Of a DNA stretch of 64,000 nt, positions 3,929 through 30,165 are shown piece by piece. The stretch is from an uncultured Clostridia bacterium (GTDB taxonomy: Bacteria > Bacillota > Clostridia > Christensenellales > UBA1242). The stretch's first letter is position 1. Each line of letters opens with the position of its first letter. The notes below the pieces were generated by a model that was not told where the DNA came from, ran no database searches, and was given only the letters and a program-made list of their open reading frames with translations. Location of the stretch: positions 381,827 through 445,826 of the forward strand of contig CAKVNK010000001.1 in assembly GCA_934777435.1 (NCBI GenBank), read 5' to 3'. The position numbers were made by a program, and so were the translations under genes.

Positions 3929-3967
3929 GTTCTCGTAGTAAAACGGATATTACGGAGCCCTCCTAAG
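3929..3967 (+). pseudogene. 5' half of a tRNA-Arg(CCU) gene interrupted by the island (attL side)
   Basis: GTTCTCG-TA-GTAA-AACGGATA-TTAC-G-GAGCC-CTCCTAA-G, then unrelated sequence; acceptor strand GTTCTCG is the exact complement of CGAGAAC at 18202-18208; anticodon stem GAGCC pairs with GGCTT at 18176-18180. Confidence 0.85.
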
Positions 3968-4092
3968 TATCGACTTGTACAAAATAAAAATCGCTAAATA
4001 TCCCTAAAATACGGACAATTTGCGATTACTTCAAACTCACACAAAACCAAAGTTCACCAAAAATTCACCCAAGCACCAATAAAACCCATTAT

Positions 4093-4169
<77 letters not shown>

Positions 4170-4177
4170 ATTCCAAA

Positions 4178-4209
4178 AGAAAAAAGACGGCTTATTTAGT
4201 CGTCTTTTT
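4178..4209. terminator. bidirectional intrinsic terminator
   Basis: AAGACGGCT / AGTCGTCTT 9-bp stem (one G-U), 5-nt loop, A-run before and T-run after; sits between the tRNA (+) and the end of the 197-aa gene (-). Confidence 0.6.
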
Positions 4210-4785
4210 CTGTGATATTCTTACTATATCCGAACGATTAGATTTTATTTTTATTATTTTATTAATATACATATCAACATTTTTTGCGAATATGTAAAGC
4301 GTTTTTTCTTCTTTGTCTTTCAACGACATACATTTACATTCGTAAATTCTATATTTTAAAATGTTTAATGTGGGATTAATATAATACAAGTTTTCTCTTA
4401 TATAAATAAATCCAAGTAGTAAATGTATCATACATATGAAAATACAATCAAATAGCAAATCTGTGTAGGGTACAGCAAAGGCTGTTAAAACCAACAAAGA
4501 AAAATGAGTAAAATATTGTTCTCCTGTATGATTTTTGCATTCAACTATTTTGTACTCTATTCCTAGTGAACTCTGTTTAAATTTTAATGTTTTAAAAAAT
4601 ATTAAAACGGAGGCTATCATGCCTATGAAAGTTAATAGTGTAACAATCCCAAAGCAAATCCATGATCCTAAATTCATTGTATAATCACTATTTATTAAAT
4701 AATCTGGAATCATTCTTATCAAGAATATTATGTTCATAAAACATACAGCCATTAAATAATAAAAGATTTTTTCAATTATTCTCAT
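4192..4785 (-). CDS. four-TM membrane protein, KwaA-like (Kiwa-type defence candidate)
   Basis: 197 aa, four hydrophobic helices then a ~70-aa soluble tail; ATGA start/stop overlap with the upstream 314-aa gene; paralogue at 41717-42265 shares the EQYF..FSL.VL and YI(R/K)..L(Y/F)YINP.LN.L.Y blocks. Confidence 0.5.
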   Translation of the reverse strand: MRIIEKIFYYLMAVCFMNIIFLIRMIPDYLINSDYTMNLGSWICFGIVTLLTFIGMIASVLIFFKTLKFKQSSLGIEYKIVECKNHTGEQYFTHFSLLVLTAFAVPYTDLLFDCIFICMIHLLLGFIYIRENLYYINPTLNILKYRIYECKCMSLKDKEEKTLYIFAKNVDMYINKIIKIKSNRSDIVRISQKKTTK

Positions 4786-5726
4786 TCTTCTACCTTATCT
4801 TCAAATATATTATATTTCAATTCTTTCGAGATTAAGTTGATAATTTTTTTACCATTCTTTTTAGTTACGTTTAACAAATCTTCTTTAAAATCTTCTTCAC
4901 TAAACACATTTCTACATTTATCTAAAATACGATTTTTTAAATCTTTGGGATCAAATGCTTCTATTGCATTTAAATAACTAGTATCTTTACTAATTTTTGC
5001 AATTCCTCTATATGCATATTTATTTTTTAATAAATCCATAAATTTATCTGCATTATAAAATATTTTCCATTTTGAAACATGTTCAGATGCTGTTTTCATT
5101 GCTGTTTCTTTCAAATTTTCATCATAATCAAATATAGAGTTGAATCTTGTTTCACTTAATATATACACATTATCATTTAAGATGACAACATCTATATTAT
5201 AATTTAATGTTAATGCCTTTGTATTCTCTTTTTCTTTAAAGCGACCATATTCTTCTAAGAATAATCGTTTATATTTCAATACTTTTTGTGTGTTTTGATA
5301 TTTTGAAACAAAATAGCAATAAGAATCATCCGTTGTGTCTTTTATTTCAGTTACATAAAGATTTAATTCTTCATTATTATACGATAATTTTTCACTAGTA
5401 TTTAATGTGTAGATATCTCTTTGCGATAGATTTCCACAACTATTTATTGTTTTGCATATAGCATCCCATCTTTTTTCAATTGACGATAAATTAAGAACTG
5501 GCAATGCACTATTATCATTCCCATTCGGATTATAGTTTTTTACTTCTCTATTGATAAATCCATATAAATAGTCATTGTAGTCTTTTAACAATGAAGAATT
5601 AATATCGTCTGGCAATAAAACCGCATTGTTAAGTTTCTCGCTTCTTGCATCGAATTTAACTAAATATATATTAATTTCACAATGCTTTAATTTATCAATT
5701 ATATCAGTAATAACTATATTTTCCAT
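4782..5726 (-). CDS. soluble 314-aa protein, KwaB/DUF4868-like (Kiwa-type defence candidate)
   Basis: Size and blocks such as LNYNIDVVILNDNVYILSETRFNSIFDY and YRGIAKISKD resemble DUF4868/KwaB as I remember it; translationally coupled to the TM protein; not verified by HMM. Confidence 0.45.
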   Translation of the reverse strand: MENIVITDIIDKLKHCEINIYLVKFDARSEKLNNAVLLPDDINSSLLKDYNDYLYGFINREVKNYNPNGNDNSALPVLNLSSIEKRWDAICKTINSCGNLSQRDIYTLNTSEKLSYNNEELNLYVTEIKDTTDDSYCYFVSKYQNTQKVLKYKRLFLEEYGRFKEKENTKALTLNYNIDVVILNDNVYILSETRFNSIFDYDENLKETAMKTASEHVSKWKIFYNADKFMDLLKNKYAYRGIAKISKDTSYLNAIEAFDPKDLKNRILDKCRNVFSEEDFKEDLLNVTKKNGKKIINLISKELKYNIFEDKVEE

Positions 5727-5790
5727 AATATCTCCTTAAGTTAAGATATTATAACATAAATTATGTCAAATTACCATACATGTTGCCAAT

Positions 5791-7182
5791 TTATTCAAAT
5801 ATTTTATTTATTACTTCACTTGCATGTATATCACTATTCTTTAGAAAGTGGCTATAGAAATCACTGGTGGTTGAGGCTTTGCTGTGGCCAGCTCTGGCTG
5901 ATACAGTCTTCATATCTACGCCCGCCATTAGTTGCAATGTTATGTTTGTATGGCGAAGTGAGTGGAGTGTAACGATTGGCAGTCCTGCTCGTGCAAGAGT
6001 TTTTTGTAACCATACTCGTAGCAGTCCTGGGCAGATATCTTTGCCGTCTTCTGTGCAGAATAGTCTATCTGTGTCGCCAAACCTATCACCAAGATACTTC
6101 TTCTGGTTTTGCCACCAAGCTTCGTATTCGTGTAAGCATTCAATAAGTTTGTCTGGCATTGAGATTGTGCGTTTTTAATTTTCTGTCTTTGGCTCTTTGG
6201 TGATTATTCCAAACCCAACTATATCTTGAACAGATCTTGCTATTGTCATTGTTTTGTTTGAATAATCTATATCTTTCCATCCAAGACCTGCAAGTTCGCC
6301 ACGTCTTATGCCCATAAAGAGTGCTATTAGCAAGGCGATTTTCCATCTTGGATTATCTAGTTTGTCTAGATACACAGCCAGTTGTTTTGCTTCTTTGTCA
6401 TTAAGTATCTTAACTTCTTTTTTGTGTCCTTGAATTGGTGCAATGTAATCACGAGATGCAAAGTTGTGTTCAACTAATCTTTGCCTTTTCGCATCGGCTA
6501 GAATTGTTGCTAATATGCGTTTAAGTTTGAGTATAGTTTCTTTTGCGTACGGGCGACTAATTACTTTAACATCAAACCACTCATCAAAGTCTAAGTTGAG
6601 TGCACTACATATTGTTTTTGCGCTATCAATCCTTATGCCATTACCAACTGTGGCTGAGTAATAGATTGATCTAGAGATGCCACTATTTCTAGTAGCATCA
6701 ATCAGTTTTATACAGTGAGATTTTAAATATTGAGTTAAATCTCGTTTGAGTATTGCATATCTTTGTTCATATTTCTTAGCCATCATTTCATCTAGGAAAC
6801 CTTGCACCATGACTGGTGTTATTTGGTTAAGTTTAATATTCCCAAAGTATGCCTCAAACTTTCTAATATTGTCTCTGCCTTTTATGTAGTAGTTTAGCGA
6901 TCTTGTATTTTTAATCTTTTCAAGCCACTTATTGGCATAATCTATAAAAGTTATGTCGTTATCTACTGTAAGCATACCGTTTAGTTGTTTTTTGAATTTA
7001 TCTTCAAAGTCCAAGCAAACTCTTTGCAATTCTTTCTTGGCTTGAATTTCGGTTAACTCGTTTGGTTTCCTCCAACACATTGATTTCGCCACAAATTGTC
7101 CAGTCCTTAGATCTTTTGCTTTTACTTGTATTCTATATGATATTGATCCGTCATTTAGTTTTTTCTTTCTAACGCAATCCAT
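5791..7182 (-). pseudogene. int: tyrosine recombinase (phage-type integrase) interrupted by one in-frame TAA
   Basis: ORFs 6175-7182 and 5791-6159 are in the same frame. The N-terminal core-binding domain and catalytic Arg (GIRRGEL) are followed by ...KEPKTEN-TAA(6175-6177)-KRTISMPDKL. Downstream are LHSLRHT (HxxR), AGH and the catalytic Tyr in SDFYSHF. Confidence 0.85.
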
Positions 7183-7196
7183 TTTATTTCTCCCTT

Positions 7197-7415
7197 TTAT
7201 CTAATAATTACTTGTTCCATTGGTAGTTCATAATCTTTGCTCTGCAAGAAGGCAAGCAGTGAATCATAGTCAATTAATACCTTCTTTCCAGTTTTAATTG
7301 ATCTAATTTTGTATCCATCTGCCAACTTTCTTATTAAGAATTCACTTAGTCCAGTGTTTGGATCTTCTTGTTTAATCATTTGTAATGTTTCTTTAATTGT
7401 TCTAATTCTTTGCAT
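7197..7415 (-). CDS. xis: excisionase-type HTH DNA-binding protein
   Basis: 72 aa from the internal ATG preceded by GGAGG; IRTIKET...LSEFLIRKLADGYKIRSIKTGKKVLIDYDSLLAFL fits the Firmicute ICE Xis/HTH_17 pattern; directly upstream of int. Confidence 0.6.
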   Translation of the reverse strand: MQRIRTIKETLQMIKQEDPNTGLSEFLIRKLADGYKIRSIKTGKKVLIDYDSLLAFLQSKDYELPMEQVIIR

Positions 7416-7724
7416 TATTCCTCCAGGTGCTGTCACTACCTGGACTTGCATTCTTATGCGAAACAAAAAGTACCGCAAAAGAGTATACAAGTCCAGTGAA
7501 ACAGCAAAATATATTCAAAATTAAACTCTGTATCTTTGAATTCTTTTTTGCTTTGTTTCTGTTTATATTTGTATCTCTGTTATCTTGGTCAAATTCGTGC
7601 CTTCTTTGATTTTTTAGCAGTCCACTTGACAATTTATTCAAGTCAAGATTTATCGCTCCTAAAACTTGAAATGACGGCTTATGTTTTCATAAAATTGCCA
7701 ACTGAAATATTACATATTTGAACT

Positions 7725-7840
7725 ATTTTGATTTAGATTTGATTGTTTTTGATTTTTATTTTGAAATCAAAATACGCAAAAGCCTTTCTTTTCCTAACTT
7801 TTTAATAAAATTTTGAAAAATTTTTTGATTTTTGATTATG
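7725..7840. repeat. iteron-like TTGATT repeats (candidate island replication origin)
   Basis: TTGATT at 7728, 7739, 7749 (10-11 bp phasing), inverted copy at 7765-7770, and again at 7825 and 7832; non-coding AT-rich stretch next to the rep-like gene. Confidence 0.35.
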
Positions 7841-7911
7841 CGAAAATTTGCGTGCGACTGCCTGTCCGCTTATTAAAAACCTTTGGCTAGAGATTTGACC
7901 GCCCCTTGGGG

Positions 7912-8574
7912 TTATGCATCCACCAGCTCTTTTATGGTTTCATCCAATGCTTCCTTAAACTTATTCCCATATTGTAATCCAAGAACTTTTACATTTGAGA
8001 CATCAAAAAGGATATATGTATCTGTTATTTTATCAATAAACAAAAAATTATCAATATAAGCCTTAAATAAAGTTTCTCCAAAACGCAATTTGAGTTTAGC
8101 AAGAAGGTAAGTGAGGATATCGTTTTTATCCAGATCTTTCACGCGCGCGTTATCATGTATTATTTTAATTTTTTTAATATCATAATAATCTATTGTCAGC
8201 AGTCCGTTACCTTCATCGTGGAAGCCAATTTCCGACAAGTTAAAGTGGGCTGGCATTTTGTTGCCGAATAGGACATCAAAATCTATAAATAGATGCAGTT
8301 CGTTAATTTTTCCTGAAAGCCTTTGAATAATTTCTTTTTTTTCCAGCCTTGCTATTAAGTTTCCAATTTGTCGTTCTTTTATGTTAAGGATGGGTAAGTC
8401 CTCTAAAATCTTTTTGTAGGTTATTTTATAATATCTCTTTTGGTCTATGAATTTGTATCTCATATAACCACTATTTACGAATTGTAACAAATATTCCAAG
8501 AACAGAAGATCGTTGAGTTTTAAGCCAAGTCTTAACACAATTTGTTGATCGAATTCAAAAATGTAATTTCTCAT
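7912..8574 (-). CDS. putative replication initiator/organiser (wHTH N-terminus, DnaA-domain-I-like C-terminus)
   Basis: 220 aa; N-terminal LNDLLFLEYLL...ERQIGNLIARLEKKEIIQR resembles DnaD/replisome-organiser wHTH; C-terminal LFKAYIDNFLFIDKITDTYILFDVSNVKVLGLQYGNKFKEAL resembles DnaA N-terminal domain. Confidence 0.35.
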   Translation of the reverse strand: MRNYIFEFDQQIVLRLGLKLNDLLFLEYLLQFVNSGYMRYKFIDQKRYYKITYKKILEDLPILNIKERQIGNLIARLEKKEIIQRLSGKINELHLFIDFDVLFGNKMPAHFNLSEIGFHDEGNGLLTIDYYDIKKIKIIHDNARVKDLDKNDILTYLLAKLKLRFGETLFKAYIDNFLFIDKITDTYILFDVSNVKVLGLQYGNKFKEALDETIKELVDA

Positions 8575-8825
8575 TATTTCTCCTTGTATCTATTGTTTTG
8601 AATGCCATACCAAAGATCTTCTTTAAGTTCTTTTATAAAATGTTTAAGTTCTTTTATTGTTTTTGTGTGTTCCAAATGATTAATAATCAACCAATCGCTG
8701 TTTGCATCTTGTAATTGCCATACAGGTACTAATTGGTATTTTGGAATTGAATAATAACAACTCATAAATTTCCTTAAAGACATTTTGCGAATATCTTTTG
8801 TTGTTAACAATTTGTTTATGAACAT
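8574..8825 (-). CDS. hypothetical protein (island)
   Basis: 83 aa ORF with GGAGG RBS; the RBS can pair with AATCCTC 20 nt upstream (possible RBS-sequestering hairpin); start/stop overlaps the rep-like gene. Confidence 0.4.
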   Translation of the reverse strand: MFINKLLTTKDIRKMSLRKFMSCYYSIPKYQLVPVWQLQDANSDWLIINHLEHTKTIKELKHFIKELKEDLWYGIQNNRYKEK

Positions 8826-8933
8826 AAAAAAATCCTCCTTTTTTAGATTAGAGGATTAATTCAAACGAGCTCTTTTTTGAAGTGACCCTCTACTTATAAG
8901 GGTGCACTTTTTTGTATATGTCCGAAAACTGTC

Positions 8934-9158
8934 CTAATGTAGTCTTTCTAATATTCCTGAGCTTTCTAATAATGTAAATATTTGATCTTTAATAGATTGA
9001 TCTTCTATTTCTTGTAGGTCTGTTGCTTCTTCTTCAAATATCTCATCAAACACTGCTTGAGCGAGGTCATATCGCGCAAGTAATCCTGCAAAAATATATC
9101 TTGCCTTTTTTGTTTGATGTTCGACAGAACCTTTTGTCATATTATGTTTTTTTTGCAT
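8934..9158 (-). CDS. hypothetical acidic protein (island)
   Basis: 74 aa ORF overlapping the end of the upstream gene by 17 nt. Confidence 0.35.
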   Translation of the reverse strand: MQKKHNMTKGSVEHQTKKARYIFAGLLARYDLAQAVFDEIFEEEATDLQEIEDQSIKDQIFTLLESSGILERLH

Positions 9159-9780
9159 ATTCTCTTATTGAAATACCTTTTAAAAACCGTTCAATAATAA
9201 GGTCGTGGTAGTTCTTCAATTCTGAATTTTTTAATGCATTTGATAAGCAGTTCATATTACTTGCAAGTTCCAATAATTCATCATAAGTCATACCAACGGG
9301 AATTAAACTCTTTTTGCCATTTTTTATTCTAATACAATTCTTATATCTAGGATAATCTGTTTTTAGGTTATCTAATATAAACTTTGCTTTGTAATCATAG
9401 CCAACTGGAACATTTCGTTTATGGTACTTGTGAGCATATCTTTTTTCGCCATAGTTTCCATCAGTATAATACTTATGAAAATAATCTCTCACTCTACCAA
9501 TTTGGGTATGGTATTTTCTCATTACCATTTTCATGAAAAGTCTTTGATGGTATTTGTCAACTTCATCTGAATTATCAAATTCTTCAAGCAATTCATCTGT
9601 CAAACACATGTCTTGGATCTCTCTTGGAAGTTTTGCAAATTCAGCAAGTGGAAGATCAGCATATTCTTTTAATCGTTCTTTTGTAGGTTTATTATCAGAT
9701 AGTTCTTCAATTATTTATTCTTCCATATTAGATTCATCTGCTATTGTATCCCAAATATCATAACTATCATCTTCGTACAT
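9142..9780 (-). pseudogene. sigma-70 region-4-like HTH protein, apparently interrupted by an in-frame TAA
   Basis: C-terminus LIIERFLKGISIREYAKK looks like a sigma region-4 HTH. The frame is open from ATG 9780 (GGAG RBS) through MYEDDSYDIWDTIADESNMEE-TAA(9715-9717)-IIEELSDNKPTKERL... into ORF 9142-9609. Confidence 0.4.
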
Positions 9781-9848
9781 AATCTTTCTCCGTTTCAACC
9801 ATTATACATTAAATTCCATAAAATTACTTTTATTTTGCCTACATTTAA

Positions 9849-9880
9849 TAAAAAAGAACGGATTTAATTTTCCGTTTCTT
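9849..9880 (-). terminator. intrinsic terminator ending the RM operon
   Basis: AACGGA / TCCGTT stem with a T-run on the minus strand, immediately after the MT-A70 gene stop. Confidence 0.45.
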
Positions 9881-9881
9881 T

Positions 9882-10439
9882 CTAAGCTTCATATCCCCAG
9901 CGATCCCATCCATCAACAATTCTTCTTGCAAAAAGTTCAATTTTTGTCGTGTTTGCGCCAAATAATCGTTCAATCCTACGCATTATTTCATCTGGCTTTA
10001 CAGAATGTCCCAACCTAGGATGCATTAAAACTTGAGGGACGGTTTTATCTACGCTTTTTATATGACCTCTCATGGCTAAAAGGCATAATTCTGCATTTGC
10101 TTTGGTATAACTCCCCATTCCTGATAGTGGTTGTCCATCTTTTTTTGTTTTTATCCAAGTAAATGCACATGTTTTATACTTAAAGCCCCATGATTCAATC
10201 ACTTTAAAAACTTCTGGTAAACAGGGCATTGTTGTCCAAATAAAAAGGGCACAATTTTTATTTCTTAATTGTTTAATATGTTCACCCAACTGGCATATTT
10301 CTTCAGTTGACATTGTTTTATAATGCTTTTCAGGACAAAAATTACCACCTTTTTCTCCTTTCCCCCATAAATAAGCCCAAGGCGGATCTGCATATATAAT
10401 GTCATATTTATTGTTTGTATTTGTAATATCTATTTTCAT
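9882..10439 (-). CDS. MT-A70-family DNA N6-adenine methyltransferase (second MTase of the RM operon)
   Basis: 185 aa; IIYADPPWAY (DPPW catalytic motif) near the N-terminus; 7 nt after the REase gene. Confidence 0.75.
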   Translation of the reverse strand: MKIDITNTNNKYDIIYADPPWAYLWGKGEKGGNFCPEKHYKTMSTEEICQLGEHIKQLRNKNCALFIWTTMPCLPEVFKVIESWGFKYKTCAFTWIKTKKDGQPLSGMGSYTKANAELCLLAMRGHIKSVDKTVPQVLMHPRLGHSVKPDEIMRRIERLFGANTTKIELFARRIVDGWDRWGYEA

Positions 10440-10446
10440 ATTCTTC

Positions 10447-11580
10447 CTAGTTAAAATAAGTTTTATAATATTCTTTTACTTTTTCATATATTAATTCATC
10501 GAAGAACATTTTACCTGCTATTGTAGGTTTTAGTTGTCGTACTTTGTTAATATTGAAAACAATAAAATCATTTTCGAATTCGCAATCCTTTAAACGAATA
10601 AAAAACAAAGATGTAATTTTATAACCTGAAAGTTTTTGATTTCCTCCACGTTCTTTTCTTTCTCCGAGTAGGTTTTTATTAACTTTAACTATATTACCAT
10701 TAATTTGCGCATTATAATCTTGCAAAAACTTTTTTAATGCAATAGGAGTCCATACTTTATAATGATTCCTACCAGCAGAACGTATTTCTCCTTCGGTGTT
10801 AGCCCATATAAATGCTTGATTTGATGGCAACATCACTAACAGTCCATTTATATCTTCTGTACATATTACTGTTATAATTTTATTCACTCCAACGTTTGAA
10901 ACAGCCAATGAAATACTTTCTTTTGAAAAAGAATTTATATTATGACCTCTTATTTCAAAAAAATTAAGTTGTGATTGTTCTTCTAACATTTGTTTAAATT
11001 GAGGATTTTTAGACAACCATTTATCATCAATTTCAAGTAAACCATTTTCCCCGTATTTTGGTAAATCGGGCTCACCAGTTTTAGCCCCAGGCTCTTTAAA
11101 TTCAATAGTGTAAAATACTAGATCTCCAATAACAGTTACTAAAGCACTATCAACTCCATCGCATCCGCCAGCCTGAATCAGCATTCTGCTTTTGTCTGCT
11201 TTGGAATATACATATCTAGGAACCATCTTATAAGAATCTAAAAAATTTCTTACAGATTGTGGAATATATGTATTATCATCATAGCAATTAATAAAATTAT
11301 CAAGATTAAAAATGTTTGCAAGCGTTTGAGCATAGACGCATTCACTAAAAACTGCCGCTTGTATATTTTTCCCTGAATTATAACTTCTCATAATTTGATG
11401 TTCTAGTGCTGGACATATTCTTTTTAGCCAATCAAAATCTATTTCAGATATTCTTTTTGTAGCTTTATTCCATAGTATATCTCGTTCCTGTTTATTCAAT
11501 ACTACTTTTGTAGGCTTTTTTGAATAAAATTCCGACATGATTTCTTTTTGTTCTTTTGTTAATGGTATTCTATTGTTCAT
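10447..11580 (-). CDS. putative type II restriction endonuclease
   Basis: 377 aa, no MTase motifs; candidate PD-(D/E)xK core in VIGDLVFYTIEFKEP; sandwiched between two MTase genes with 15- and 7-nt spacers. Confidence 0.55.
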   Translation of the reverse strand: MNNRIPLTKEQKEIMSEFYSKKPTKVVLNKQERDILWNKATKRISEIDFDWLKRICPALEHQIMRSYNSGKNIQAAVFSECVYAQTLANIFNLDNFINCYDDNTYIPQSVRNFLDSYKMVPRYVYSKADKSRMLIQAGGCDGVDSALVTVIGDLVFYTIEFKEPGAKTGEPDLPKYGENGLLEIDDKWLSKNPQFKQMLEEQSQLNFFEIRGHNINSFSKESISLAVSNVGVNKIITVICTEDINGLLVMLPSNQAFIWANTEGEIRSAGRNHYKVWTPIALKKFLQDYNAQINGNIVKVNKNLLGERKERGGNQKLSGYKITSLFFIRLKDCEFENDFIVFNINKVRQLKPTIAGKMFFDELIYEKVKEYYKTYFN

Positions 11581-11595
11581 TTGTTTTTCTCCTTT

Positions 11596-13242
11596 TTATT
11601 CTTCAGAATTGTTTAGATTTCCGAAAAAACTATTTTTGTGTAATATATCAAAAGCTTGTGATCGTAAATAGTCAAAACCTAAAATTTTTAGCAGTCTATT
11701 GTTTATCTGATCTCTATATTTTGAGGGAAATTTTAAGTTTTCTTGGATTGATCCTGCATTTAATTTTGTAACTACACATTCCTTTTCGATTCTCATCATA
11801 TCTTCACTTATTGCTCTAAAGAATTCCTTATCTTCATTATTTAGCAAGTTTATAAAGATCGGTAAAGAATTAAGCAAACCTATTGGATAGGTTATTCCAC
11901 CATCAAACATTCTCCACCACCAGTAGGCAAAACTTGAGTTAATTAAACAATAGACAAATGAATACTCAATTTCATTTTCGAAACACAAATTGATAAAGCC
12001 AGTTCTTTTTAATTCATATGAAGATGCCGTTGTAAAATACCTACATGTGTTTGGGATAAATATTTTGTATTTTGATGATTTTGTTGAAACAATATTTTTT
12101 AAGCATTGATTTGATTTGTTCATCCAGGCATCTTTTATTAATTCTAAATCTTTTGGACATTTTATATATGCTTTATTATTTTTGTCCACAATTTGTTTTT
12201 TTGCAGATAATGTTGATTCAAGAATATTGCATTTTAGTATTTTATCTCTTTCTTCATTTTTAAATCTTATTAGAGGGCTTATATTAAACCCTTTGCCTTT
12301 GTTATCCACAACTGTTATTGCCGCTCTTACTGAATTACTAGTGTTTGTATTAAATATTCCGTGTTTTCTCCCACAAAATATATTACCTGGGACATTATCA
12401 AACGAAACTATGAAACCAGCATATTCATTCATAAGTAAACGAAGGGGATAAAACTTATTTCCTCCAATAAAACTATATGGAGTGATTATAACAGATTTAT
12501 CGCTTTCTAATAAAATTTTTTCCATAAAACTAGAATATAGTTCTTTAGTATACATTTGTATTTTTGATCTATCCCATTCGTAAGGAATGGATGAAATGCC
12601 AGCGTATGGGGGATTGGATATTACTTTTGAATCGGAAGGTAAGTGAACTTTCTTGTTTAGGAAGTCGCAGTGGATTGCATGAATGTTTTTTGAGTATTGC
12701 TTTCCATACCTCATCAAAATTGCTGTCTTACAAATTGTAAGTGCGGTTTCATCCAAGTCGTAAAGATAAATTTTGCTTTCACTTAACAATCTATGTGCTT
12801 CATCGGTTCCGATCAAGTCTAGATATGTTAGTATTAGTATACCAGTACCACATGCCACATCACACACATTATGAGCATCAAGATCTTTCAACCATCCAGC
12901 CATAATAAGAGCAACATCTTCTGGTGTGTAATATTGGCCATTATCTTTCTTTTGTTTTTTGTCTTGTATAGCCAATGCTATTTCATATAACTCGCCAAAA
13001 TTATTTACATTTAAGAACTCACTGACTTTATTCTCAATAACATAACCACATATATTATTCCATGTAGTCTGAATACCAAACTGTTCAATATCTTTAGTAT
13101 ATTTATTTATATCGTACGACCTAAATTTTTCTTTCCATGAATCAGGTATATTGGTATTTATTTCACCTAATTCTTCAATTTGATTATTTTCTGGCGAAGA
13201 CTCTAGATAATCAAATAAAGTAAATTGATTATAATTTTCCAT
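11596..13242 (-). CDS. gamma-class N6-adenine DNA methyltransferase (Eco57I/TaqI-like)
   Basis: 548 aa; GQYYTPEDVA, SAM motif VCDVACGTGILIL, catalytic VISNPPYAG, followed by a C-terminal target-recognition region. Confidence 0.8.
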   Translation of the reverse strand: MENYNQFTLFDYLESSPENNQIEELGEINTNIPDSWKEKFRSYDINKYTKDIEQFGIQTTWNNICGYVIENKVSEFLNVNNFGELYEIALAIQDKKQKKDNGQYYTPEDVALIMAGWLKDLDAHNVCDVACGTGILILTYLDLIGTDEAHRLLSESKIYLYDLDETALTICKTAILMRYGKQYSKNIHAIHCDFLNKKVHLPSDSKVISNPPYAGISSIPYEWDRSKIQMYTKELYSSFMEKILLESDKSVIITPYSFIGGNKFYPLRLLMNEYAGFIVSFDNVPGNIFCGRKHGIFNTNTSNSVRAAITVVDNKGKGFNISPLIRFKNEERDKILKCNILESTLSAKKQIVDKNNKAYIKCPKDLELIKDAWMNKSNQCLKNIVSTKSSKYKIFIPNTCRYFTTASSYELKRTGFINLCFENEIEYSFVYCLINSSFAYWWWRMFDGGITYPIGLLNSLPIFINLLNNEDKEFFRAISEDMMRIEKECVVTKLNAGSIQENLKFPSKYRDQINNRLLKILGFDYLRSQAFDILHKNSFFGNLNNSEE

Positions 13243-13454
13243 TATTCATCTCCACTAGGCAATACATCCATAATTTCTGATATATTACAATTCAACACTT
13301 GACAAATTCTCAAAAGAACATCCATGCTAACTTGCTGGTCTTTACTAAGTTTCGCGAGTGTAGCAGTCCCTAGATCTGCCTGTAATCTTAACTGTGTTTT
13401 TGTCATTTTTAAATCTATTAGTAGTTTCCATAATTTATTATAACTAATATTCAT
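13242..13454 (-). CDS. XRE-family HTH protein, likely RM controller (C) protein
   Basis: 70 aa; TKTQLRLQADLGTATLAKLSKDQQVSMDVLLRICQVLNCNISEI is a Cro/C1-type HTH; TAATG overlap with the downstream MTase. Confidence 0.65.
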   Translation of the reverse strand: MNISYNKLWKLLIDLKMTKTQLRLQADLGTATLAKLSKDQQVSMDVLLRICQVLNCNISEIMDVLPSGDE

Positions 13455-13614
13455 ATTTTACTCCCAACTAAGTTTTATCTATTATAAAATATTTTAAATT
13501 AAAATGCTAATAAATTATTCAACTTCGCAAATAAATTATGTATAAAAAATTCTCTTAAATGACTTGCAAAAGAAATATATTTACGGTAAAACACAAACAC
13601 GTTGGAGGTGGGTT

Positions 13615-13848
13615 ATGAAAAAGATAGTTGAACTTGTTAATATGAGTTTTAAAAACTCGCAAGAATATTTCAAGCAAAGTATTGAAATTCAACACATTAA
13701 GGCTGATTTAATTGAAACATTGTTAGCCGAGCAAAAACAAAAGTTTGAGCAGTTGTTGGCTAGCATTTATAAGCTTCACAGACTAGACAACGAAGAATAT
13801 ATCGTTCATACCTTCAATATTTGCAAGGATATATTTAAACTTAGGTAG
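13615..13848 (+). CDS. hypothetical protein (island)
   Basis: 77 aa from the ATG preceded by GGAGGTG; coiled-coil-like sequence. Confidence 0.4.
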   Translation: MKKIVELVNMSFKNSQEYFKQSIEIQHIKADLIETLLAEQKQKFEQLLASIYKLHRLDNEEYIVHTFNICKDIFKLR

Positions 13849-13898
13849 ACTTACCTCTTAGGATGCTTTGGCCTATCCATTTTATTTTAGGAGATTTT

Positions 13899-14273
13899 AT
13901 GAAAACTAGATTTGTTTGCAAGATGCCTGATGCGAGACTTGTGCGCAATGCTATCGATCGCAAAGAAGGACGAATGCGTGAATATATTGTTGAAAGAACG
14001 ATTTATCTTTCAAAGTAAAAGTTTATACACTTTAGAAGTCATTTGCTCGATGATATTGATGAACTCAATAATTACAAAAATGAAATGTTTATTGATAAAA
14101 ATGGTTGTTTTCATGTGTTGATGTTTGGCTCAATGATTGCTGATATTATGATCCTAGTTTACAGCGATGGCGAAGATTATGCCAAATATGTTTCTATAAT
14201 TTCTAATGGAGGTGAAAAAGTTGAACCACGTTTTACAACTAGTGAAAGATATCCTAAAAAACGAAAAAATTAG
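13899..14273 (+). pseudogene. hypothetical protein interrupted by an in-frame TAA
   Basis: AGGAG RBS then MKTRFVCKMPDARL...ERTIYLSK-TAA(14016-14018)-KFIHFRSHLLDDIDELNNYK... continuing in the same frame to 14273. Confidence 0.35.
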
Positions 14274-14463
14274 TGCAGAAGAACAACTGCAATTAAATAA
14301 AATATGCGAACTTGAAGATAAATTTGTAAAGGGTTTTTCAAAAGAAAAATGGCGAGAGTATTTTGACTTAGACGTAGAAAAAGGTCAACTTGTAAACCTA
14401 CAAATTGACCATATTGTTGAGATTACATATAGAGTTGTGAAAGAGTTAATACTGATTAAATAA
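14206..14463 (+). CDS. hypothetical protein (island)
   Basis: 85 aa ORF; start uncertain (ATG 14206 or TTG after GGAGGTG); its 3' end overlaps the convergent helicase gene by 8 nt. Confidence 0.3.
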   Translation: MEVKKLNHVLQLVKDILKNEKISAEEQLQLNKICELEDKFVKGFSKEKWREYFDLDVEKGQLVNLQIDHIVEITYRVVKELILIK

Positions 14464-17400
14464 TATCGATTAAATTTTCAATATATTTGTAGTCTATTTC
14501 ATTTTCGTCGTTTATCAAATATGGAACTTGTATTATTTTATCATCAACAGATACTTTAATTTTGTGATTGCCTCTTTGAAAAATATTGGCAACTATAACT
14601 TTTACACCTTGCACTGTGCCAAGTTTCCAATCAATGAAACGGCAATAACCATCATTGTCTTTTACAAAATAATCCCAATGTTTAAAATCGAAATAAAAGT
14701 TCTTAATTTTGAAGTCAAAAGCTTCATATTGCCCATTGTGATCAAGCTCTTCTAAATCATAACCAAGTGCTTTGTCTATAATATATTTTCCAACAACTTC
14801 TCCCAGTGCACCTTTGTAAACTTGTTTGTATAAGGACTCCGTCATAATGTATTTCCCACTCTTAAAATCGGTGGCATAACCGCTTTCTTCAAAATACTTC
14901 CTTAATTCTGGGATATTCATTAACCTAATTAATTCACTTTCTTCTGCAGAGACTTGATTTGTTTCATAAGAGTTATTAAAAGAAATTTTTGTAAACTCAT
15001 GCTTATTGTTTAGTTTAAATGCATAGCCAGAATATGGTGTATCAAACTCAAGATACAAATCCCTATACTTTTCTGGAACAAAATTTGCTGTTGGGTTTTT
15101 TAATACAAAATCACGCAGATCCTGCCATTCTACAACAGCCTGTTCTGATTCTCGAACAGCTTTTGACATTCTACAAATTGTGACGAATGCTTGTTTGTTC
15201 CTATTAGTATATTTTACCAACTCTAAATCATCACTTTTAACTGGTTGACTTAACAATTGATAAAATTCTTTGTTAAAAATAAATTCACCATTAATTAATT
15301 CTTCTTGTATTATGCTTAATCGATTTAGCACTTCTTGGTCGTAAAAGATATTTATTACTTTGTTTTTATTTTTACACCTACAAATTCTTCCAACAGCTTG
15401 TATGGTCAACTGTGCTGTGTGCAGTAGTATATCTTGATTTCGCTTATAAGAGGAGATTATTCTGTCCCCATAAAAGGTTTTTCTGAATCCTGCCTCAATA
15501 TTAGTCTTTCTTTCACTGTGATTTATATATTTTTTTTGATACAAATATTCTTGTTGAAAAAGATACTTACACAATTCATTTGCCTTATTTTCAGAGTCAT
15601 AAGATAAAATTTGTATCAAATTCGTTGGCGTGGAAAGATAAATAGCATCAAAGTCCTTTTGAGGTTTATTTTCTGGAAAAGACACTACATTGGATTTAAT
15701 ATTTTGAATCTCTGGGATATCATATTGAATATTTTTGCCATTTCCAATTGTTTTATAGGTGCTTAAAACAAATACTTTTTTGCCTTCCGCCAGTTCTTCA
15801 TCAATTTTGGCAAATTCTTCATCATATGTGCTACTTTTTACAATGTGCAAAATTGGAGGGGCGACATAATTATTTTGTGTAATTAAATCTTGTAGGCCTT
15901 TTTCTAAAATGTCCCTGTCTAAAAAGTGCTCGCTTTTTGCTTTCTCTTTAGTAGTTGGAAACGAATTTAAAAATGCTAAGAAAGAGAATATGTTTTTGCT
16001 TTCGGTCACTTCTTTAAAAAGTTTCAATAATTTGCAAATAATAAAGAAGTGATAATGGCTATTACTTTTTTCAAGATAATCTAAATATAATCTTTTATTT
16101 TCTTCATTAAATAATGAGTTGATTATTGTTATACATTTTTCTTTGTCTGAAAAAAAGTTAAAATCATCAATAGCAATGGTTTTTATTTTTATATCATTAT
16201 CTTCGTATATCTTTTGACTTTCTACAAATTGCTTTTCTAACCTGCGATGATCGCTGTCTGGAACGCAATAAAAGCTATCTCTTAATATTTTTTTAAGATA
16301 ATCAATATCATAATTTCCAATTACTGTATCAATAGATGCGGTAGCAGAAATTCCTACTACACGAGACTTTATACTCAACTTTGTTATTATATCCTCTGGA
16401 GTTGTATCAAATTTAAATGCGTGAGATTTGGTCTGCAAATCATGATTATGATCATCTTCAATTTCTGTGTATTCAAAGCCTTTACGCATAAATTCAAACT
16501 CAGTATCAATCGACAAATCTAGTTTTAAGTTAGCATCCTTGTCTATTATACGATCAAGCAAATATTGTTTAAATTCGTTAGCAATATTAAATGCTGATAA
16601 TATAGTTAATACAGATTCTTCGAACGAGTATTTTGTTTGATAGCCTTTCAATGACTGATTCTTATAGTCTGTATAGTTCTTAGATATATATGCGGCTTTA
16701 TTTACGAAATCATCGATAGCATATTTAACTTCTCTTAAGACATTGTCAAATCTTTTATTTTCTTGACCAACATAGCTTTTTGCCTCTGCATATAATGAAA
16801 TATTGTTTTCGTCTTTATCTAACTTAGTATGAAGAACTCTTTTTGAATTATCATTAAAAATATTTAATGTTTTTCCGTCATCAAATATAAAAGCTTTTTT
16901 CTCTTCAAATCCTTTACTCTTTGTGAAGAATTCAAAATTATAATCTTGATATACTTCTACAAAATGCTTCTCTAGTTGACTTTTCAAGGTTTTAATATCA
17001 TCCCATTCTTGATTTGCTATTTTTTCCTTTCTATAATCACTAAGCTTCATTAAAGAATTCGGGAACTTCAAATTTGTAAGAGAATAATAAATATTTAAAA
17101 ATAATGCAAATATATCTATATCAAATTTTAATCCATCGTCAATTATCTGAGAAAGGAGAGTCTCTTTTGTAGTATCAAACTCATCAATGAACGTCACAGT
17201 ATTGTTCATCATTGAGTTGTTGTTATAAATGTAAAACGGCATACGAGAAAATGTATCCATTGGACTAAAGAATTTTTTAGTGCTTGATAAAACAACTTTT
17301 ATGTTTTCATCTTTTAATTTGCAAGTTGGATAAAGTTCCGCTATCCACTTATTGTTGTTCAGAAACTTGTCTTTGTCATTTGTTGATTTATTGTATAAGT

Positions 17401-17893
17401 AGTTCTTTTTTATAAATTGTCTAAATTTAATTTCAGTGTCTTTTTCAATTTTTTGTTCATAAGATTTAATCAATTTTTTTGTCTGCTTGTATTCGTGATC
17501 GAAATTTTCAATTTTAAATTTTTCTTTATCTGCTCTAAATTTATAAAGAGTTTCAATATCCAAATTTAAATTTTTATATTCATCTGAATTAAGAATTTCA
17601 GAATTATTGATTTGAACATATTTCCACTTTTCAGTTACCGATTGCCAATATGGTTTTAGATACAAGCAATAATCATTGTAAGCGCTTCCAAACAATTCCT
17701 TAAGCTGTTTCTCAGGAAGATTGTTTTTAAGGTTAGTGACGAAATAAACACGTTTTGCAACAGGCAATTCATTATTAATAAAATCTTTTATGAAGTTGAT
17801 AACACTCGTTGTCTTACCAAACCCAGTTGGTAAATCTAAAAGCATCAAACCATTATCTTTACTTTCTACAAAATTTTCTATACTTTTAAGCAT
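14456..17893 (-). CDS. SF2 helicase fused to a C-terminal PD-(D/E)xK nuclease-like domain (single-gene defence candidate, Hna-like architecture)
   Basis: 1145 aa. Motif I is LLDLPTGFGKTT, motif II VTFIDEFD, motif III VVGISATAS, motif V STYKTIGNGKNIQ, motif VI QAVGRICR. The C-terminal GALGEVVGKYII...YEAFDFKI...FYFDFKHW fits E...D...DxK. Confidence 0.65.
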   Translation of the reverse strand: MLKSIENFVESKDNGLMLLDLPTGFGKTTSVINFIKDFINNELPVAKRVYFVTNLKNNLPEKQLKELFGSAYNDYCLYLKPYWQSVTEKWKYVQINNSEILNSDEYKNLNLDIETLYKFRADKEKFKIENFDHEYKQTKKLIKSYEQKIEKDTEIKFRQFIKKNYLYNKSTNDKDKFLNNNKWIAELYPTCKLKDENIKVVLSSTKKFFSPMDTFSRMPFYIYNNNSMMNNTVTFIDEFDTTKETLLSQIIDDGLKFDIDIFALFLNIYYSLTNLKFPNSLMKLSDYRKEKIANQEWDDIKTLKSQLEKHFVEVYQDYNFEFFTKSKGFEEKKAFIFDDGKTLNIFNDNSKRVLHTKLDKDENNISLYAEAKSYVGQENKRFDNVLREVKYAIDDFVNKAAYISKNYTDYKNQSLKGYQTKYSFEESVLTILSAFNIANEFKQYLLDRIIDKDANLKLDLSIDTEFEFMRKGFEYTEIEDDHNHDLQTKSHAFKFDTTPEDIITKLSIKSRVVGISATASIDTVIGNYDIDYLKKILRDSFYCVPDSDHRRLEKQFVESQKIYEDNDIKIKTIAIDDFNFFSDKEKCITIINSLFNEENKRLYLDYLEKSNSHYHFFIICKLLKLFKEVTESKNIFSFLAFLNSFPTTKEKAKSEHFLDRDILEKGLQDLITQNNYVAPPILHIVKSSTYDEEFAKIDEELAEGKKVFVLSTYKTIGNGKNIQYDIPEIQNIKSNVVSFPENKPQKDFDAIYLSTPTNLIQILSYDSENKANELCKYLFQQEYLYQKKYINHSERKTNIEAGFRKTFYGDRIISSYKRNQDILLHTAQLTIQAVGRICRCKNKNKVINIFYDQEVLNRLSIIQEELINGEFIFNKEFYQLLSQPVKSDDLELVKYTNRNKQAFVTICRMSKAVRESEQAVVEWQDLRDFVLKNPTANFVPEKYRDLYLEFDTPYSGYAFKLNNKHEFTKISFNNSYETNQVSAEESELIRLMNIPELRKYFEESGYATDFKSGKYIMTESLYKQVYKGALGEVVGKYIIDKALGYDLEELDHNGQYEAFDFKIKNFYFDFKHWDYFVKDNDGYCRFIDWKLGTVQGVKVIVANIFQRGNHKIKVSVDDKIIQVPYLINDENEIDYKYIENLIDII

Positions 17894-18168
17894 GCAATTT
17901 CTCCAAATACATTTACATTATAACATAAAAATTGTAAAATTGAATAATAGTAGCAAAGATTGTTTAAATTATCTAATTTTATAGAAATGCACCCAAAGTG
18001 CAAAATGAGTGAAATGTTCACCATTTGTGTACCGTGGGTTTGAAAGGAGTTGATTAAAAATTATAAAAGTTAGCCGTTTTGGTTAAAATACTGCACAATT
18101 TTGGCTAAAATTTTGATAAGAATTGCGATTTTTAATAAGAAATAGATTAAAATTATAATTTTCCATTG

Positions 18169-18212
18169 CTCCTAAGGCTTTGTTGTGGGTTCGATTCCCG
18201 CCGAGAACACCA
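18169..18212 (+). pseudogene. 3' half of the interrupted tRNA-Arg(CCU) gene (attR side)
   Basis: CTCCTAA-GGCTT-TGTT-GTGGG-TTCGATT-CCCGC-CGAGAAC-A-CCA; complements the 5' half at 3929-3967. Confidence 0.85.
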
Positions 18213-18250
18213 AATAAAAAAACGGCTGTTTTAGCCATTTTTTTTGTTTT
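18213..18250. terminator. weak bidirectional terminator after the tRNA 3' half and the M60-like gene
   Basis: GGCT-gtttt-AGCC short stem flanked by an A-run and a T-run. Confidence 0.35.
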
Positions 18251-18312: not shown

Positions 18313-21300
18313 TTATTTTTCTGCTTTTTGCTTATGTTTTTTGATTAGAACCATAATTGTGATAGCTATTATAAAACCTAAAACAAAGGTTGTTGTCAAT
18401 ATTGGAACAATATACTCTTTTGCTGTATGCGCGACTTCTAACGTTGTGTCACCATTAATTATTACTTTGCTTCCGTCAATTTTTGTGCCATTATTTAACC
18501 AATATGAAACCGTTTCTTGATACAATGTGCTTAAATCTATTTCTGTGCCATATTCATAATATCCAGTATACACCACTTTGCCTTTATTTTTAAGAGTAAG
18601 CAAGAAAAGTTGTTCATAGACAGCAGTATAAGTTGTGTTGGAAATTGCAACAACTGGTTCTTGAATTGAATAAACTGCAGTACTATTGCCCCATGCAATC
18701 AATTTTTTATCTGCTTCCAACTCTGTTCCATCAAAATTTGGGAGACTGAACATGGTGTATGGTGTGTAATATGCTGTTTCAGTTTTTGCACCATAATCAA
18801 AATTAATTTTAACCTTATTGCCTAAATTTGCTGTAAGTGTAATATTTACTTGCATTGTGATTTTGCTATTAAAAGAATATTCATTGCCAAGTTGGTCTGA
18901 AAAACTTACAGCATATTGTGTTGGTAAAAGGTCAAAATCAAGTGTTACGATTTCGCCATATTTATAGGTTTTTGTTTGTTGCAAACTGCCAAAATTAAGA
19001 GTTAAACCAACTGGGCTTGCTTTGCCAATTATTGTATTATCTTTTAACTCTGCACTTATGTTTGAAGTTGATAAATTAACTAGTTCACAATATGCGTCTG
19101 TTAAGGCAAAATTGTTTGCCTTTAAAATGCACATATCGTCAACAAAATCAAGCAAATTGAAAGTGCAATTTGTTAAGTTTGTAAACACACCACCATCAAG
19201 TATCAATTCACTACCAAATTTGATATTGATTTGTGCTTGAATATTTGCCCCAGCATTTATTGTTGTTTTACCACCAAGCAAACTGATTTCTCCGGATTGC
19301 TCGTCACCGCCAACTATTGCGTTTTTAAGTGTTAAATTGCCTGACACAATCACAATATCGTTACCAGACACAGCGGTGTTGTCTTGAACAACGGAATTAT
19401 CAATAATAAGTTGGCGAACTGCAACTGTTGTTGAATAATATATTCCACCTGCTTGTTTTGTTGCTGTGTTATTGCTTATTTGTGAATATTTAATATTTGT
19501 GTATCCGTCAATATGTAAACCCGCACCAATTTCAGCAGTGTTTTGTGTGATTATGCAGTTGTTTGTGTTTAAAATGCCACCTGCATAATTTTTGATTGTT
19601 CCATTTTGAGATTTGTTGTTTTTTATTTCACAACGATTTAAAGATATGTTACATTTGAAAGCCAAAACACCATCTTTTGTTGAAACATTATCAGAGATAA
19701 TTGTTGTTAAAAATGTTGCACTCGCACTTGCGTAATCGCCGAAAAGTGCACTACCATTTTGTGCTTTGTTATTTGTGATTTTACAGTTTTCAAAGGTTGA
19801 ATTTTTTGAGTTGTTAAGCAAAATTATTGCTCCACCATTGCCTGACGACACATTATTAGTTAACACAACATATTGTGCTTTAACTGTGCCAGCAGTACTG
19901 ATTAAAGCCCCATTTTGAGTAAAGCCATTACCGTTCAAAATCAACCAATTTGTGCTTTTGCCTACCAAATTAAAGGTAGCACCTGTTACAACTGAAATCA
20001 AATTGCCAGCTTCAATTTTTGAAATTGTTATGTCACCTTCAACCCCTTCCGCAATAGCAAAAGTTAAGTTTTTATCTATTGTTAAATTTACGCTTGAACA
20101 ACTTTTTAACAACAAAATTGTGTCGCCAGATTGAGCAAATTTGACTGCTTCAAGCAAAGAATTATATTCGGTTTCACCAATTTTACAAACCGCTTGACTG
20201 TTTGTTTGTGGTTGCATTGCCACACTTAAACATGAACTGCTGAAAGTGTTATCAACTGCAACAACTTTATAATTTGGTGTGTAGCCCTCTGGATAGGTTG
20301 TTGAATCTGTAAACGCATTTGTGTAACTGAAACCTATTTGTTTATAGCCGTTTGTTTCATCACCCTGCCAAATTTCATGGCCCAAATGATTTTCATTGTT
20401 TGTGTGATTGATAAATATATTATATCCTGTTGCAGTTTTTGTTATGCTTTGTATGTTTGCAACTGTGGAAGATGAATAAATTGGTGTTGTGTTTGTGTTG
20501 TGATATGCAGTGGCTGTTTGATACCATAATTTTGGCTGTTTTGTGTTGTCAATTATACCATTTGTTGTTGCCAGTGACATAAGTTCTTTAAATGTTTTGC
20601 TTGCGTTTTCAATTTTGAAAACTGGGTCATTCTCCAATTTATTTGTAAGCGAATAACCCCAACGGTCAAAATAATAACTCATATCTATGCCAGTAACCAA
20701 AGAAGAAAACAAAACTTGTTTTTCAGTTGGTTTAAGGTTATTTATTTGTGTTTGTATTGTGCTATCTAATGCCAAAAATAGCTTTAATGTTGCGTTTGTG
20801 CCACGATAACAATTTTCAAGGTTTGCCCAATAGCCTTTTTGCCAACACTCTATATACCACCAAATTAAAAAGTTATAGCGATTGCTGTTAAAATATGGTG
20901 TTGCATCATAAATTAAATCGTTTGAAAGTGTGGTTGTTGTTTTTGCAAACTCGCCACGTGCATTAAGTTTTTCAATAACTGTTTCATTATACTTTGCAAA
21001 CATATTGTTGGTAGTTTCACCGATTGTGCGGTTTGGATTGTCCATCATATGCCCAATTTCGTGCGGGATACCCCAGCCAAAGCCTGAACCAGTGATTAAA
21101 CTGCTTTGCCAACTGTAATATACACCAATATGTTCTGAATAAGCATAAGCTGCTGCCCCTGCCCATGGTTGCACAACCCTAATATTTACGTTGGCGTGCA
21201 AGTTACGTTCATCAAAAAGTGGATTAGATTTATTTTGTGTTATGCCATCAAATTCAAGCAGTTGGTCCATAAAAGTGTTCCAATTTGTGATTGCTTGGCT

Positions 21301-22806: not shown

Positions 22807-22902
22807 ACACTATTCCTTTTGATTTTCAACGTAACAACAAATTAATCAATAAAATTATTTTACTTGTCTATATTTATTTATGTTGTTATATTGCTTTTTT
22901 TA

Positions 22903-22946
22903 TATTCAAGTATATAATACTTGCTATTCAAGTATATTTTACTTGC
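22903..22946. promoter_or_regulatory. two tandem 22-bp units each containing a CAAGTAT-N3-ATACTTG-type palindrome (operator-like)
   Basis: TATTCAAGTATATAATACTTGC then TATTCAAGTATATTTTACTTGC, 100-140 bp upstream of the M60-like start codon and just past the terminator of the upstream gene. Confidence 0.4.
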
Positions 22947-22965
22947 AAACCAGTTAATAAGGCAA

Positions 22966-22998
22966 GCAAAAAAGCCACAATATTCTGTGGCTTTTTTA
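22966..22998. terminator. bidirectional intrinsic terminator after the giant surface-protein gene
   Basis: AGCCACA-atattc-TGTGGCT stem-loop flanked by an A-run and a T-run. Confidence 0.7.
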
Positions 22999-23048
22999 TT
23001 GAATAAATTGTTTAAACAAATTAAATAAATTTATTAAATCAATTAAAT

Positions 23049-30083: not shown

Positions 30084-30165
30084 TATTTTCTCCTTCAACC
30101 AACTAGGTTGACCTTGTTGCCTTAAACTTGGTGCTTTAATTCTGTTTGTATTTTTGTTTGTTTTA

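Follow-up and report, generated by a model that had tools for sequence, protein, structure and literature searches.

The gene analyzed here lies on the minus strand at positions 14456-17893 of a 64,000-nucleotide stretch of DNA from an uncultured Clostridia bacterium, which at its full length is referred to as the window, and encodes a protein of 1145 amino acids (aa) in which a helicase is fused to a nuclease. The best overall explanation is that it encodes a full-length DdmD-family enzyme from a Bacillota clade lacking DdmE, which acts as a self-contained single gene moving between defence islands, and we give this reading a probability of roughly 0.6. DdmD has been described only as one half of the two-gene system DdmDE, in which DdmE, a catalytically inactive guide protein resembling prokaryotic Argonautes (pAgo-like), steers DdmD onto plasmids. 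The DdmD family itself is already known; what stands out is a deep and strongly conserved clade of complete DdmD proteins without an Argonaute, and a literature search of incomplete coverage found no description of such a clade.

Assignment of the protein to the DdmD family

The open reading frame (ORF) starts with ATG and comprises 1145 codons. The ORF list and the sequence bear out both its position and all superfamily 2 (SF2) helicase motifs quoted in a first-pass annotation of the window, namely PTGFGKTT (residues 22-29), IDEFD (236-240), SAT (516-518), TIGNGKN (715-721) and QAVGRICR (832-839); the Walker A lysine, numbered K28 there, is K27. The long insertions between motifs I and II (~206 aa) and between motifs II and III (~276 aa) have the lengths given in that annotation, but they are not unusual, as it had supposed: they correspond to the INS and Arch insertions known from XPD-type helicases and align with the respective domains of DdmD from Lactobacillus casei (LcDdmD). 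The C-terminal pattern E...D...DxK is made up of GALGE (E1032), FD (D1060) and DFK (D1069 and K1071), and these four residues align with E1059, D1085, D1100 and K1102 of Vibrio cholerae DdmD (VcDdmD), in which the exchange K1102A abolishes plasmid elimination (10.1101/2024.05.10.593530). In an alignment of 14 relatives, the most distant of which is 24% identical, the residues conserved without exception include G24, G26 and K27 (Walker A), D237 and E238 (motif II), S516, A517 and T518 (motif III) and Q832, G835, R836 and R839 (motif VI), which are all located in the helicase region, as well as E1032, D1060, D1069 and K1071 of the nuclease pattern, which had been recognized correctly in the first pass. 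Because they are invariant across these relatives, the helicase and nuclease motif residues are regarded as selected catalytic residues and not as chance similarities.

The PADLOC model for DdmD (PDLC04130) matches the protein with an E-value of 1.3e-34 over residues 184-1069. A phmmer search against the PDB sequences revealed LcDdmD (9ix4, E 3.7e-47, covering residues 180-1130 as well as the P-loop at the N-terminus) and VcDdmD (E 2e-35). Furthermore, an AlphaFold2 (AF2) model based on a 14-sequence alignment reached a predicted local distance difference test score (pLDDT) of 86 and a predicted template modelling score (pTM) of 0.82, and all of the 20 best Foldseek matches of this model in PDB were DdmD (E 1e-50 to 1e-41, TM 0.53-0.60, ~1200 columns), followed by DinG and XPD as runners-up with E ~1e-9. 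In the published structures, DdmD consists of a DinG/XPD-like helicase, whose HD1 is interrupted by INS and Arch and which has no Fe-S cluster, and of a PD-(D/E)xK nuclease. Residues 76-195 of the window protein, which form the INS domain, contain a single cysteine and therefore should not hold an Fe-S cluster either. Pfam yielded solely a sub-threshold match to ResIII (17.6 bits compared to a cut-off of 22.5, residues 3-126), and a search of NCBIfam gave no match. A type III Res subunit, mentioned in the first pass as an alternative, was rejected: ResIII stays below the cut-off, PADLOC reports no REase_III match, a Mod partner is missing, and the neighbouring methyltransferases (MTases) are of type II and belong to a separate operon.

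Judged from the sequence matches and the modelled fold, the product is almost certainly a DdmD family member and is best described as a predicted full-length DdmD relative, composed of an XPD/DinG-type SF2 helicase and a C-terminal PD-(D/E)xK nuclease. The fusion proposed earlier is thereby borne out by the DdmD matches and the AF2/Foldseek results, whereas the label "unassigned" no longer applies, as the PADLOC, PDB and Foldseek searches place the protein firmly in a named family.

Absence of DdmE from the clade of the window gene

The neighbouring genes were inspected in 79 genome loci of relatives. In 43 of these loci, in which the helicase-nuclease is 27-32% identical to the window protein, an abutting or overlapping ORF of 590-730 aa is located directly downstream on the same strand. 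These 43 ORFs represent one family (each matches all 42 others in BLASTP) and match the solved DdmE proteins of L. casei (E 1e-12 to 1e-14) and V. cholerae (E 1e-7 and 7e-4). At 28-32% identity to the window protein, a relative is nearly always accompanied by an adjoining DdmE gene. No ORF of this type adjoins the window gene. In a FastTree phylogeny, which is unrooted, the window protein falls into a clade of 19 rows with a support of 100; all of them belong to Bacillota and none has a downstream DdmE-type ORF (referred to as the solo clade). The sister group comprises 51 rows with a support of 95, most of which are paired with DdmE. A long-branched row from locus L021 is a Tmn-like neighbour and was disregarded; in this locus (7980-14993) a DdmD-like gene for 1134 aa is directly followed by a gene for a Tmn-like ATPase of 1164 aa (PADLOC Tmn, E 1.4e-62).

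The intermediate relatives conform to this division, as P0129 and P0131 (32-33% identity) lack a DdmE gene and P0134 (34%) has one. The unrooted tree is compatible both with a loss of DdmE in the solo clade and with its primitive absence. DdmE-less groups also occur outside this clade, namely in four Bacteroidota loci nested among paired relatives (L039, L046, L053 and L081) and in a three-member group of Bacillota (L078, L080 and L085). The DdmE-less state probably arose more than once.

The PADLOC model for DdmE gave no match in the window genome, but this model is insensitive and recognized just one of five genuine partners tested. As it missed most of the genuine partners, a purpose-built profile was constructed from 30 DdmE sequences, which detected DdmE in all five positive-control genomes with paired loci, one of them outside the training set of the profile. 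With this profile not a single match at E<=10 was obtained in the window genome (1.0 Mb on 3 contigs, 91% complete), and no Piwi domain was found there either. The profile likewise detected no DdmE in 14 out of 15 other genomes bearing a close relative, where one shows only a chance match of 12.7 bits. The fifteenth genome harbours, besides the solo gene, a complete DdmD-DdmE pair that is encoded separately on another contig. In the Christensenella-like genome G092, a solo-clade gene occurs together with a canonical DdmD-DdmE pair, which is complete, and with a third copy of DdmD that is degraded and contains internal stops (L100-L102; C9 25611-28970, C17 34726-39892 and C25 15554-17122), and this coexistence of solo and paired forms suggests that they are non-redundant. 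Taking these searches together, it is very probable that the window gene belongs to a functional lineage that genuinely lacks DdmE.

Conservation and distribution of the solo clade

The ratio of non-synonymous to synonymous substitution rates (dN/dS) of the window gene is 0.04-0.05 in comparison to four relatives, with dS being saturated, and the gene is under strong purifying selection. This bears on the idea that the solo gene is a remnant of evolution: a DdmD that was left behind when DdmE was lost and has since persisted by chance, or as selfish cargo of the island, without serving defence itself. Such a scenario would fit the dependence of characterised DdmD on DdmE in vivo and the partial decay of the island, in which the integrase and ORF B of a small-ORF cassette carry nonsense mutations. 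We nevertheless consider a remnant highly improbable, as the low dN/dS persists across saturated synonymous divergence, all catalytic residues are invariant, the DdmE-less state marks a deep, diverse and well-supported clade (more than 100 clusters at 90% identity), and one genome retains the solo gene next to a complete DdmDE pair.

Solo-clade-specific indels of at least 5 aa, which were sought as a replacement for DdmE, were not found; solo and paired proteins are collinear, and no domain was lost specifically in the clade. The columns that discriminate solo from paired proteins are R217/P219/F220, I722, C840, Q1024 and Y1056. The helical bundle in HD2, by which the V. cholerae enzyme binds DdmE (S603-A633), maps to residues ~576-607 and is kept helical in the window protein, but its retention is uninformative about a partner because the bundle also sits at the entrance for single-stranded DNA (ssDNA).

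The distribution is highly patchy: of 48 genomes of congeneric species two contain a homologue, which in one case is 41% identical and belongs to a different sub-lineage, and none was found in 32 genomes that represent other families of this order. A housekeeping role in DNA repair or recombination, comparable to DinG or AddAB and unrelated to immunity, could be derived from the DinG/XPD-like helicase core and from loci such as L004. In this locus (79% identity) the helicase-nuclease gene is the only part in common with the window and the neighbours are housekeeping genes including ogt. However, a core-genome distribution is not seen, the window gene rides on an integrative island together with Kiwa and a restriction-modification (RM) system, defence systems are frequent neighbours of its relatives, and the matches to DinG/XPD are far weaker than those to DdmD (E 1e-9 compared to 1e-50), so that a repair enzyme is a most improbable interpretation.

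The defence neighbours of solo-clade genes comprise restriction endonucleases (REases) of type I (L010, L014 and L020) and type III (L025), Gabija (L013 and L026), a PDC-S06/LmuB-like system (L023) and Tmn (L021); a KAP NTPase, HsdR and a NOV_C giant were found beside P0129 and P0131. It is conceivable that the protein serves as effector in a two-part system with a sensor that is non-homologous to DdmE and is encoded elsewhere or varies between islands. In one version of this explanation, neighbouring restriction enzymes would make the DNA ends or flaps for loading, and RM genes are indeed located at a distance of at most 5 kb in the window and in L005, L008, L010, L014, L016, L020, L022 and L025. 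This adjacency is to be expected of any defence-island gene, and there is no neighbouring gene that is conserved across the solo clade, with the L004 gene standing alone among housekeeping genes. In another version the small-ORF cassette next to the window gene would act as a regulator, but as set out below the cassette does not follow the helicase gene, and in both versions a two-part system appears unlikely to us. The sequence comparisons rather indicate that the solo gene is a self-contained and mobile single-gene module of the defence-island type.

Possible mode of action

Characterised DdmD alone degrades substrates that contain ssDNA, but not blunt or supercoiled double-stranded DNA (dsDNA), and the autoinhibited DdmD dimer dissociates when it meets sufficiently long ssDNA or forked DNA. 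By analogy, the solo enzyme might rest as a dimer that INS and Arch hold together and keep autoinhibited, and exposed ssDNA or forked DNA could open this dimer directly without the help of DdmE. Such DNA might be provided by incoming conjugative strands, rolling-circle intermediates of plasmids or phages, phage replication forks or fragments released by neighbouring restriction systems. The freed monomer would then translocate in 5'-3' direction at the expense of ATP, and the nuclease would shred the strand. We consider a role of the window gene in anti-plasmid or anti-phage defence likely, whereas its activation by ssDNA or forks independent of a guide, although the simplest model for a DdmE-less enzyme, is proposed tentatively, on the basis of this analogy. 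In a similar way, it is possible, but falls short of an even chance, that a large DdmD lineage acts as a self-sufficient, guide-independent single-gene immune nuclease, which senses ssDNA or forks directly. The earlier description as a single-gene defence candidate holds insofar as the gene stands alone and is probably involved in defence; it needs revision with regard to the family, which is known and normally part of the two-gene system DdmDE.

Several points weigh against a self-contained enzyme. On its own, DdmD of V. cholerae fails to remove plasmids in vivo and leaves dsDNA plasmids largely intact in vitro, hence the solo clade must differ in regulation or target, and a DdmE-less relative needs another route of activation or recruitment. 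With the window genome being 91% complete, a partner could be encoded on unassembled DNA, although 14 other genomes of the solo clade agree. Furthermore, the DdmE searches are blind to a non-homologous partner encoded in trans.

At present, DdmDE is seen as an obligate two-part machine, in which an Argonaute finds the plasmid and a helicase-nuclease destroys it. The solo clade is frequent among Firmicutes of gut and rumen and spreads as a single gene from one defence island to another. It implies a second activation route for the enzyme or a different class of targets, and raises the question of how helicase-nuclease effectors distinguish foreign DNA from that of their own host when no guide is available. 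Solo genes carry the annotation "hypothetical protein" and escape tools that demand DdmD and DdmE together, so that the number of defence systems in gut anaerobes is underestimated. If a guide-independent lineage exists, Argonaute guidance would be an add-on to an autonomous helicase-nuclease or was later lost from it, and guided and unguided modes could coexist in one genome as non-redundant systems.

The integrative island and its split tRNA

The DdmD-like gene occupies the last cargo position in an integrative defence island of 14.2 kb (Table 1). The first-pass annotation had described it as a monocistronic gene that neighbours an RM operon and lies at the attR end of an island, and all of this is confirmed, with the RM operon being located downstream. 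The promoter-like and terminator-like sites flanking the gene are consistent with a monocistronic unit, as far as a consensus scan can tell, and the upstream region is near-identical in L007, L008 and L012.

Table 1. Features of the helicase-nuclease gene and of the surrounding island; coordinates refer to the window.
Feature	Coordinates	Strand	Basis or remark
DdmD-family helicase-nuclease gene (P0001), DdmE-less clade, 1145 aa	14456..17893	-	ORF list, PADLOC, PDB, AF2/Foldseek, dN/dS
XPD/DinG-type SF2 helicase region, residues ~1-880 (limits approximate)	15254..17893	-	limits transferred from LcDdmD via PDB sequence alignment
INS domain, residues ~76-195 (limits approximate), between motifs I and II	17309..17668	-	sequence; helical in AF2 model; LcDdmD/VcDdmD descriptions
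Arch domain, residues ~256-496 (limits approximate), between motifs II and III	16406..17128	-	alignment to LcDdmD, AF2 model
C-terminal PD-(D/E)xK nuclease domain, residues ~881-1145; predicted catalytic E1032, D1060, D1069, K1071	14459..15253	-	alignment to VcDdmD 958-1117
Promoter-like site, ~85 nt upstream of the helicase-nuclease ATG	17976..18004	-	consensus scan only
Terminator-like hairpin and T-run, 46 nt past the helicase-nuclease stop, within ORF C (opposite strand)	14383..14410	-	consensus scan only
Integrative defence island, 14,201 bp	3968..18168	.	tRNA, PADLOC/Pfam and junction analysis
attL: 5' half of split host tRNA-Arg(CCT)	3929..3967	+	8-bp repeat CTCCTAAG at 3960-3967
attR: 3' half of split host tRNA-Arg(CCT)	18169..18213	+	8-bp repeat CTCCTAAG at 18169-18176
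Type II RM operon adjoining the cassette	9882..13454	-	Pfam, PADLOC
Helix-turn-helix (HTH) controller-like protein	13242-13454	-	RM operon
N6-adenine MTase	11596-13242	-	RM operon
Probable REase, 377 aa, between the two MTases	10447-11580	-	protein-language-model neighbours only
MT-A70 MTase	9882-10439	-	RM operon
Three-ORF cassette, convergent with the helicase-nuclease gene	13615..14463	+	ORFs A, B and C
ORF A, 77 aa, weakly DUF6809-like	13615-13848	+	
ORF B, in-frame TAA at 14016-14018 in the window	13863-14273	+	matches phrog_21303 (E 3e-16)
ORF C, 85 aa, overlaps the helicase-nuclease stop codon by 8 nt	14206-14463	+	

In detail, the island contains its own tRNA-Arg(CCT), KwaA/KwaB, a broken tyrosine integrase, two unknown genes, the type II RM operon, the small-ORF cassette and finally the DdmD-like gene. 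The host tRNA-Arg(CCT) is cut at the anticodon loop, and joining the attL and attR halves in silico yields a tRNA-Arg(cct) of 75 nt. A complete island-borne tRNA-Arg(CCT), whose acceptor stem differs from that of the host, is located at 4093-4169 just inside attL. The island leaves the host tRNA-Arg(CCT) unrebuilt and brings a complete substitute instead. The intact tRNA-Arg at 4093 had also been considered as attL, but was rejected owing to the mismatch between its acceptor stem and the attR remnant. In L007, L008 and L012 the attR junction is the same as in the window, with host-specific 3' halves of the tRNA, and the integrase region is common to the window, L007, L012 and L024.

The Kiwa-like pair is encoded on the minus strand between the island tRNA and the integrase (4192-5726) and consists of KwaA (197 aa, PADLOC E 2e-14) and KwaB (314 aa, PADLOC E 2e-10 and Pfam KwaB). 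The tyrosine integrase (5791-7182, minus strand) is broken into pieces of 335 aa and 122 aa by a TAA codon at 6175-6177, which is TCA in L024 and L012; the copy of L024 looks interrupted at another place. This interruption has probably immobilised the island. Just outside the island, two giant genes are located at 18313-30098 on the minus strand, encoding 1497 aa (with weak M60-like_N, beta-helix and F5/8 type C matches) and 2349 aa. They probably code for surface or adhesin-like proteins and are notable for a genome of ~1.0 Mb with 30% GC, with the genomes of congeners ranging from 0.7 to 1.5 Mb.

The RM operon and the three-ORF cassette

The gene between the two MTases of the RM operon has no match in Pfam, PADLOC or PHROG. 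Its protein-language-model neighbours include clusters similar to R.HinP1I, MspI and HaeIII (0.92-0.94), and it probably encodes the REase of the operon.

The three small convergent ORFs next to the RM operon had been proposed as partners or antisense regulators of the helicase-nuclease gene. Their overlap with the 3' end of this gene, which is due to ORF C, is correct. The cassette adjoins the helicase gene in five loci and in two different arrangements, and ORF C is under purifying selection with a dN/dS of 0.15-0.31, both of which would suit the regulatory version of a two-part system. On the other hand, ORF B is broken in the window, and the cassette is absent from most of the solo-clade loci. 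In L024 it is located upstream of the helicase gene and divergent from it; here the cassette including ORF C is ~80% identical to that of the window and the integrase 92% (DNA), but the helicase merely 39%. Because cassette and integrase are similar in this locus and the helicase is not, the cassette is assigned to the island backbone, with which it co-varies, and the small ORFs were rejected as specific partners of the helicase. The coordinates of the cassette are 11434-12239 in L007 and 7070-7875 in L024. As a conserved element it marks the cargo end of this island family, where the gene convergent to ORF C is the DdmD-like gene in the window and a gene for 701 aa in L024.

Comparison with known systems

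The SF2 helicases DinG and XPD (E. coli DinG, PDB 6fws) share the core topology with two insertions in HD1, and a 5'-3' polarity is expected for the window protein as well. However, they match more weakly (E 1e-9, TM ~0.3) and have no fused PD-(D/E)xK nuclease, and the window gene is an accessory and not a core gene. Hna, which acts in abortive infection, is a single gene with an N-terminal helicase and a C-terminal nuclease like the window gene, and the first-pass annotation was reminded of it. This resemblance found no support in sequence or fold, as DdmD is the sole PADLOC match at E<=0.01 (the presence of an Hna model in that release is unconfirmed) and all top structural matches are DdmD.

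Cas3 and DruE of type III Druantia follow a similar logic, as both are autoinhibited or recruited helicase-nucleases which degrade invader DNA, and DruE is an autoinhibited dimer that is opened by forked DNA (10.64898/2026.05.13.724313). Nevertheless, the folds of Cas3 (SF2 helicase and HD nuclease) and DruE (MrfA-like 3'-5' helicase and PLD nuclease) are unrelated to that of the window protein, and Cas3 needs Cascade and DruE needs DruH, whereas the window gene stands alone. The closest likeness is to DdmD of the DdmDE systems of V. cholerae and L. casei (PDB 9ix4, 9ixm, 9bf1, 8u0u and 9ezx). Although the window protein is only ~18-20% identical to these enzymes and has no DdmE adjacent or elsewhere in the genome, it is alike in length (~1150-1190 aa) and in the order of domains, with HD1 including INS and Arch followed by HD2 and the PD-(D/E)xK nuclease and without an Fe-S cluster, and it has kept the ATPase and nuclease residues, with K27 corresponding to K55 and K1071 to K1102 of VcDdmD.

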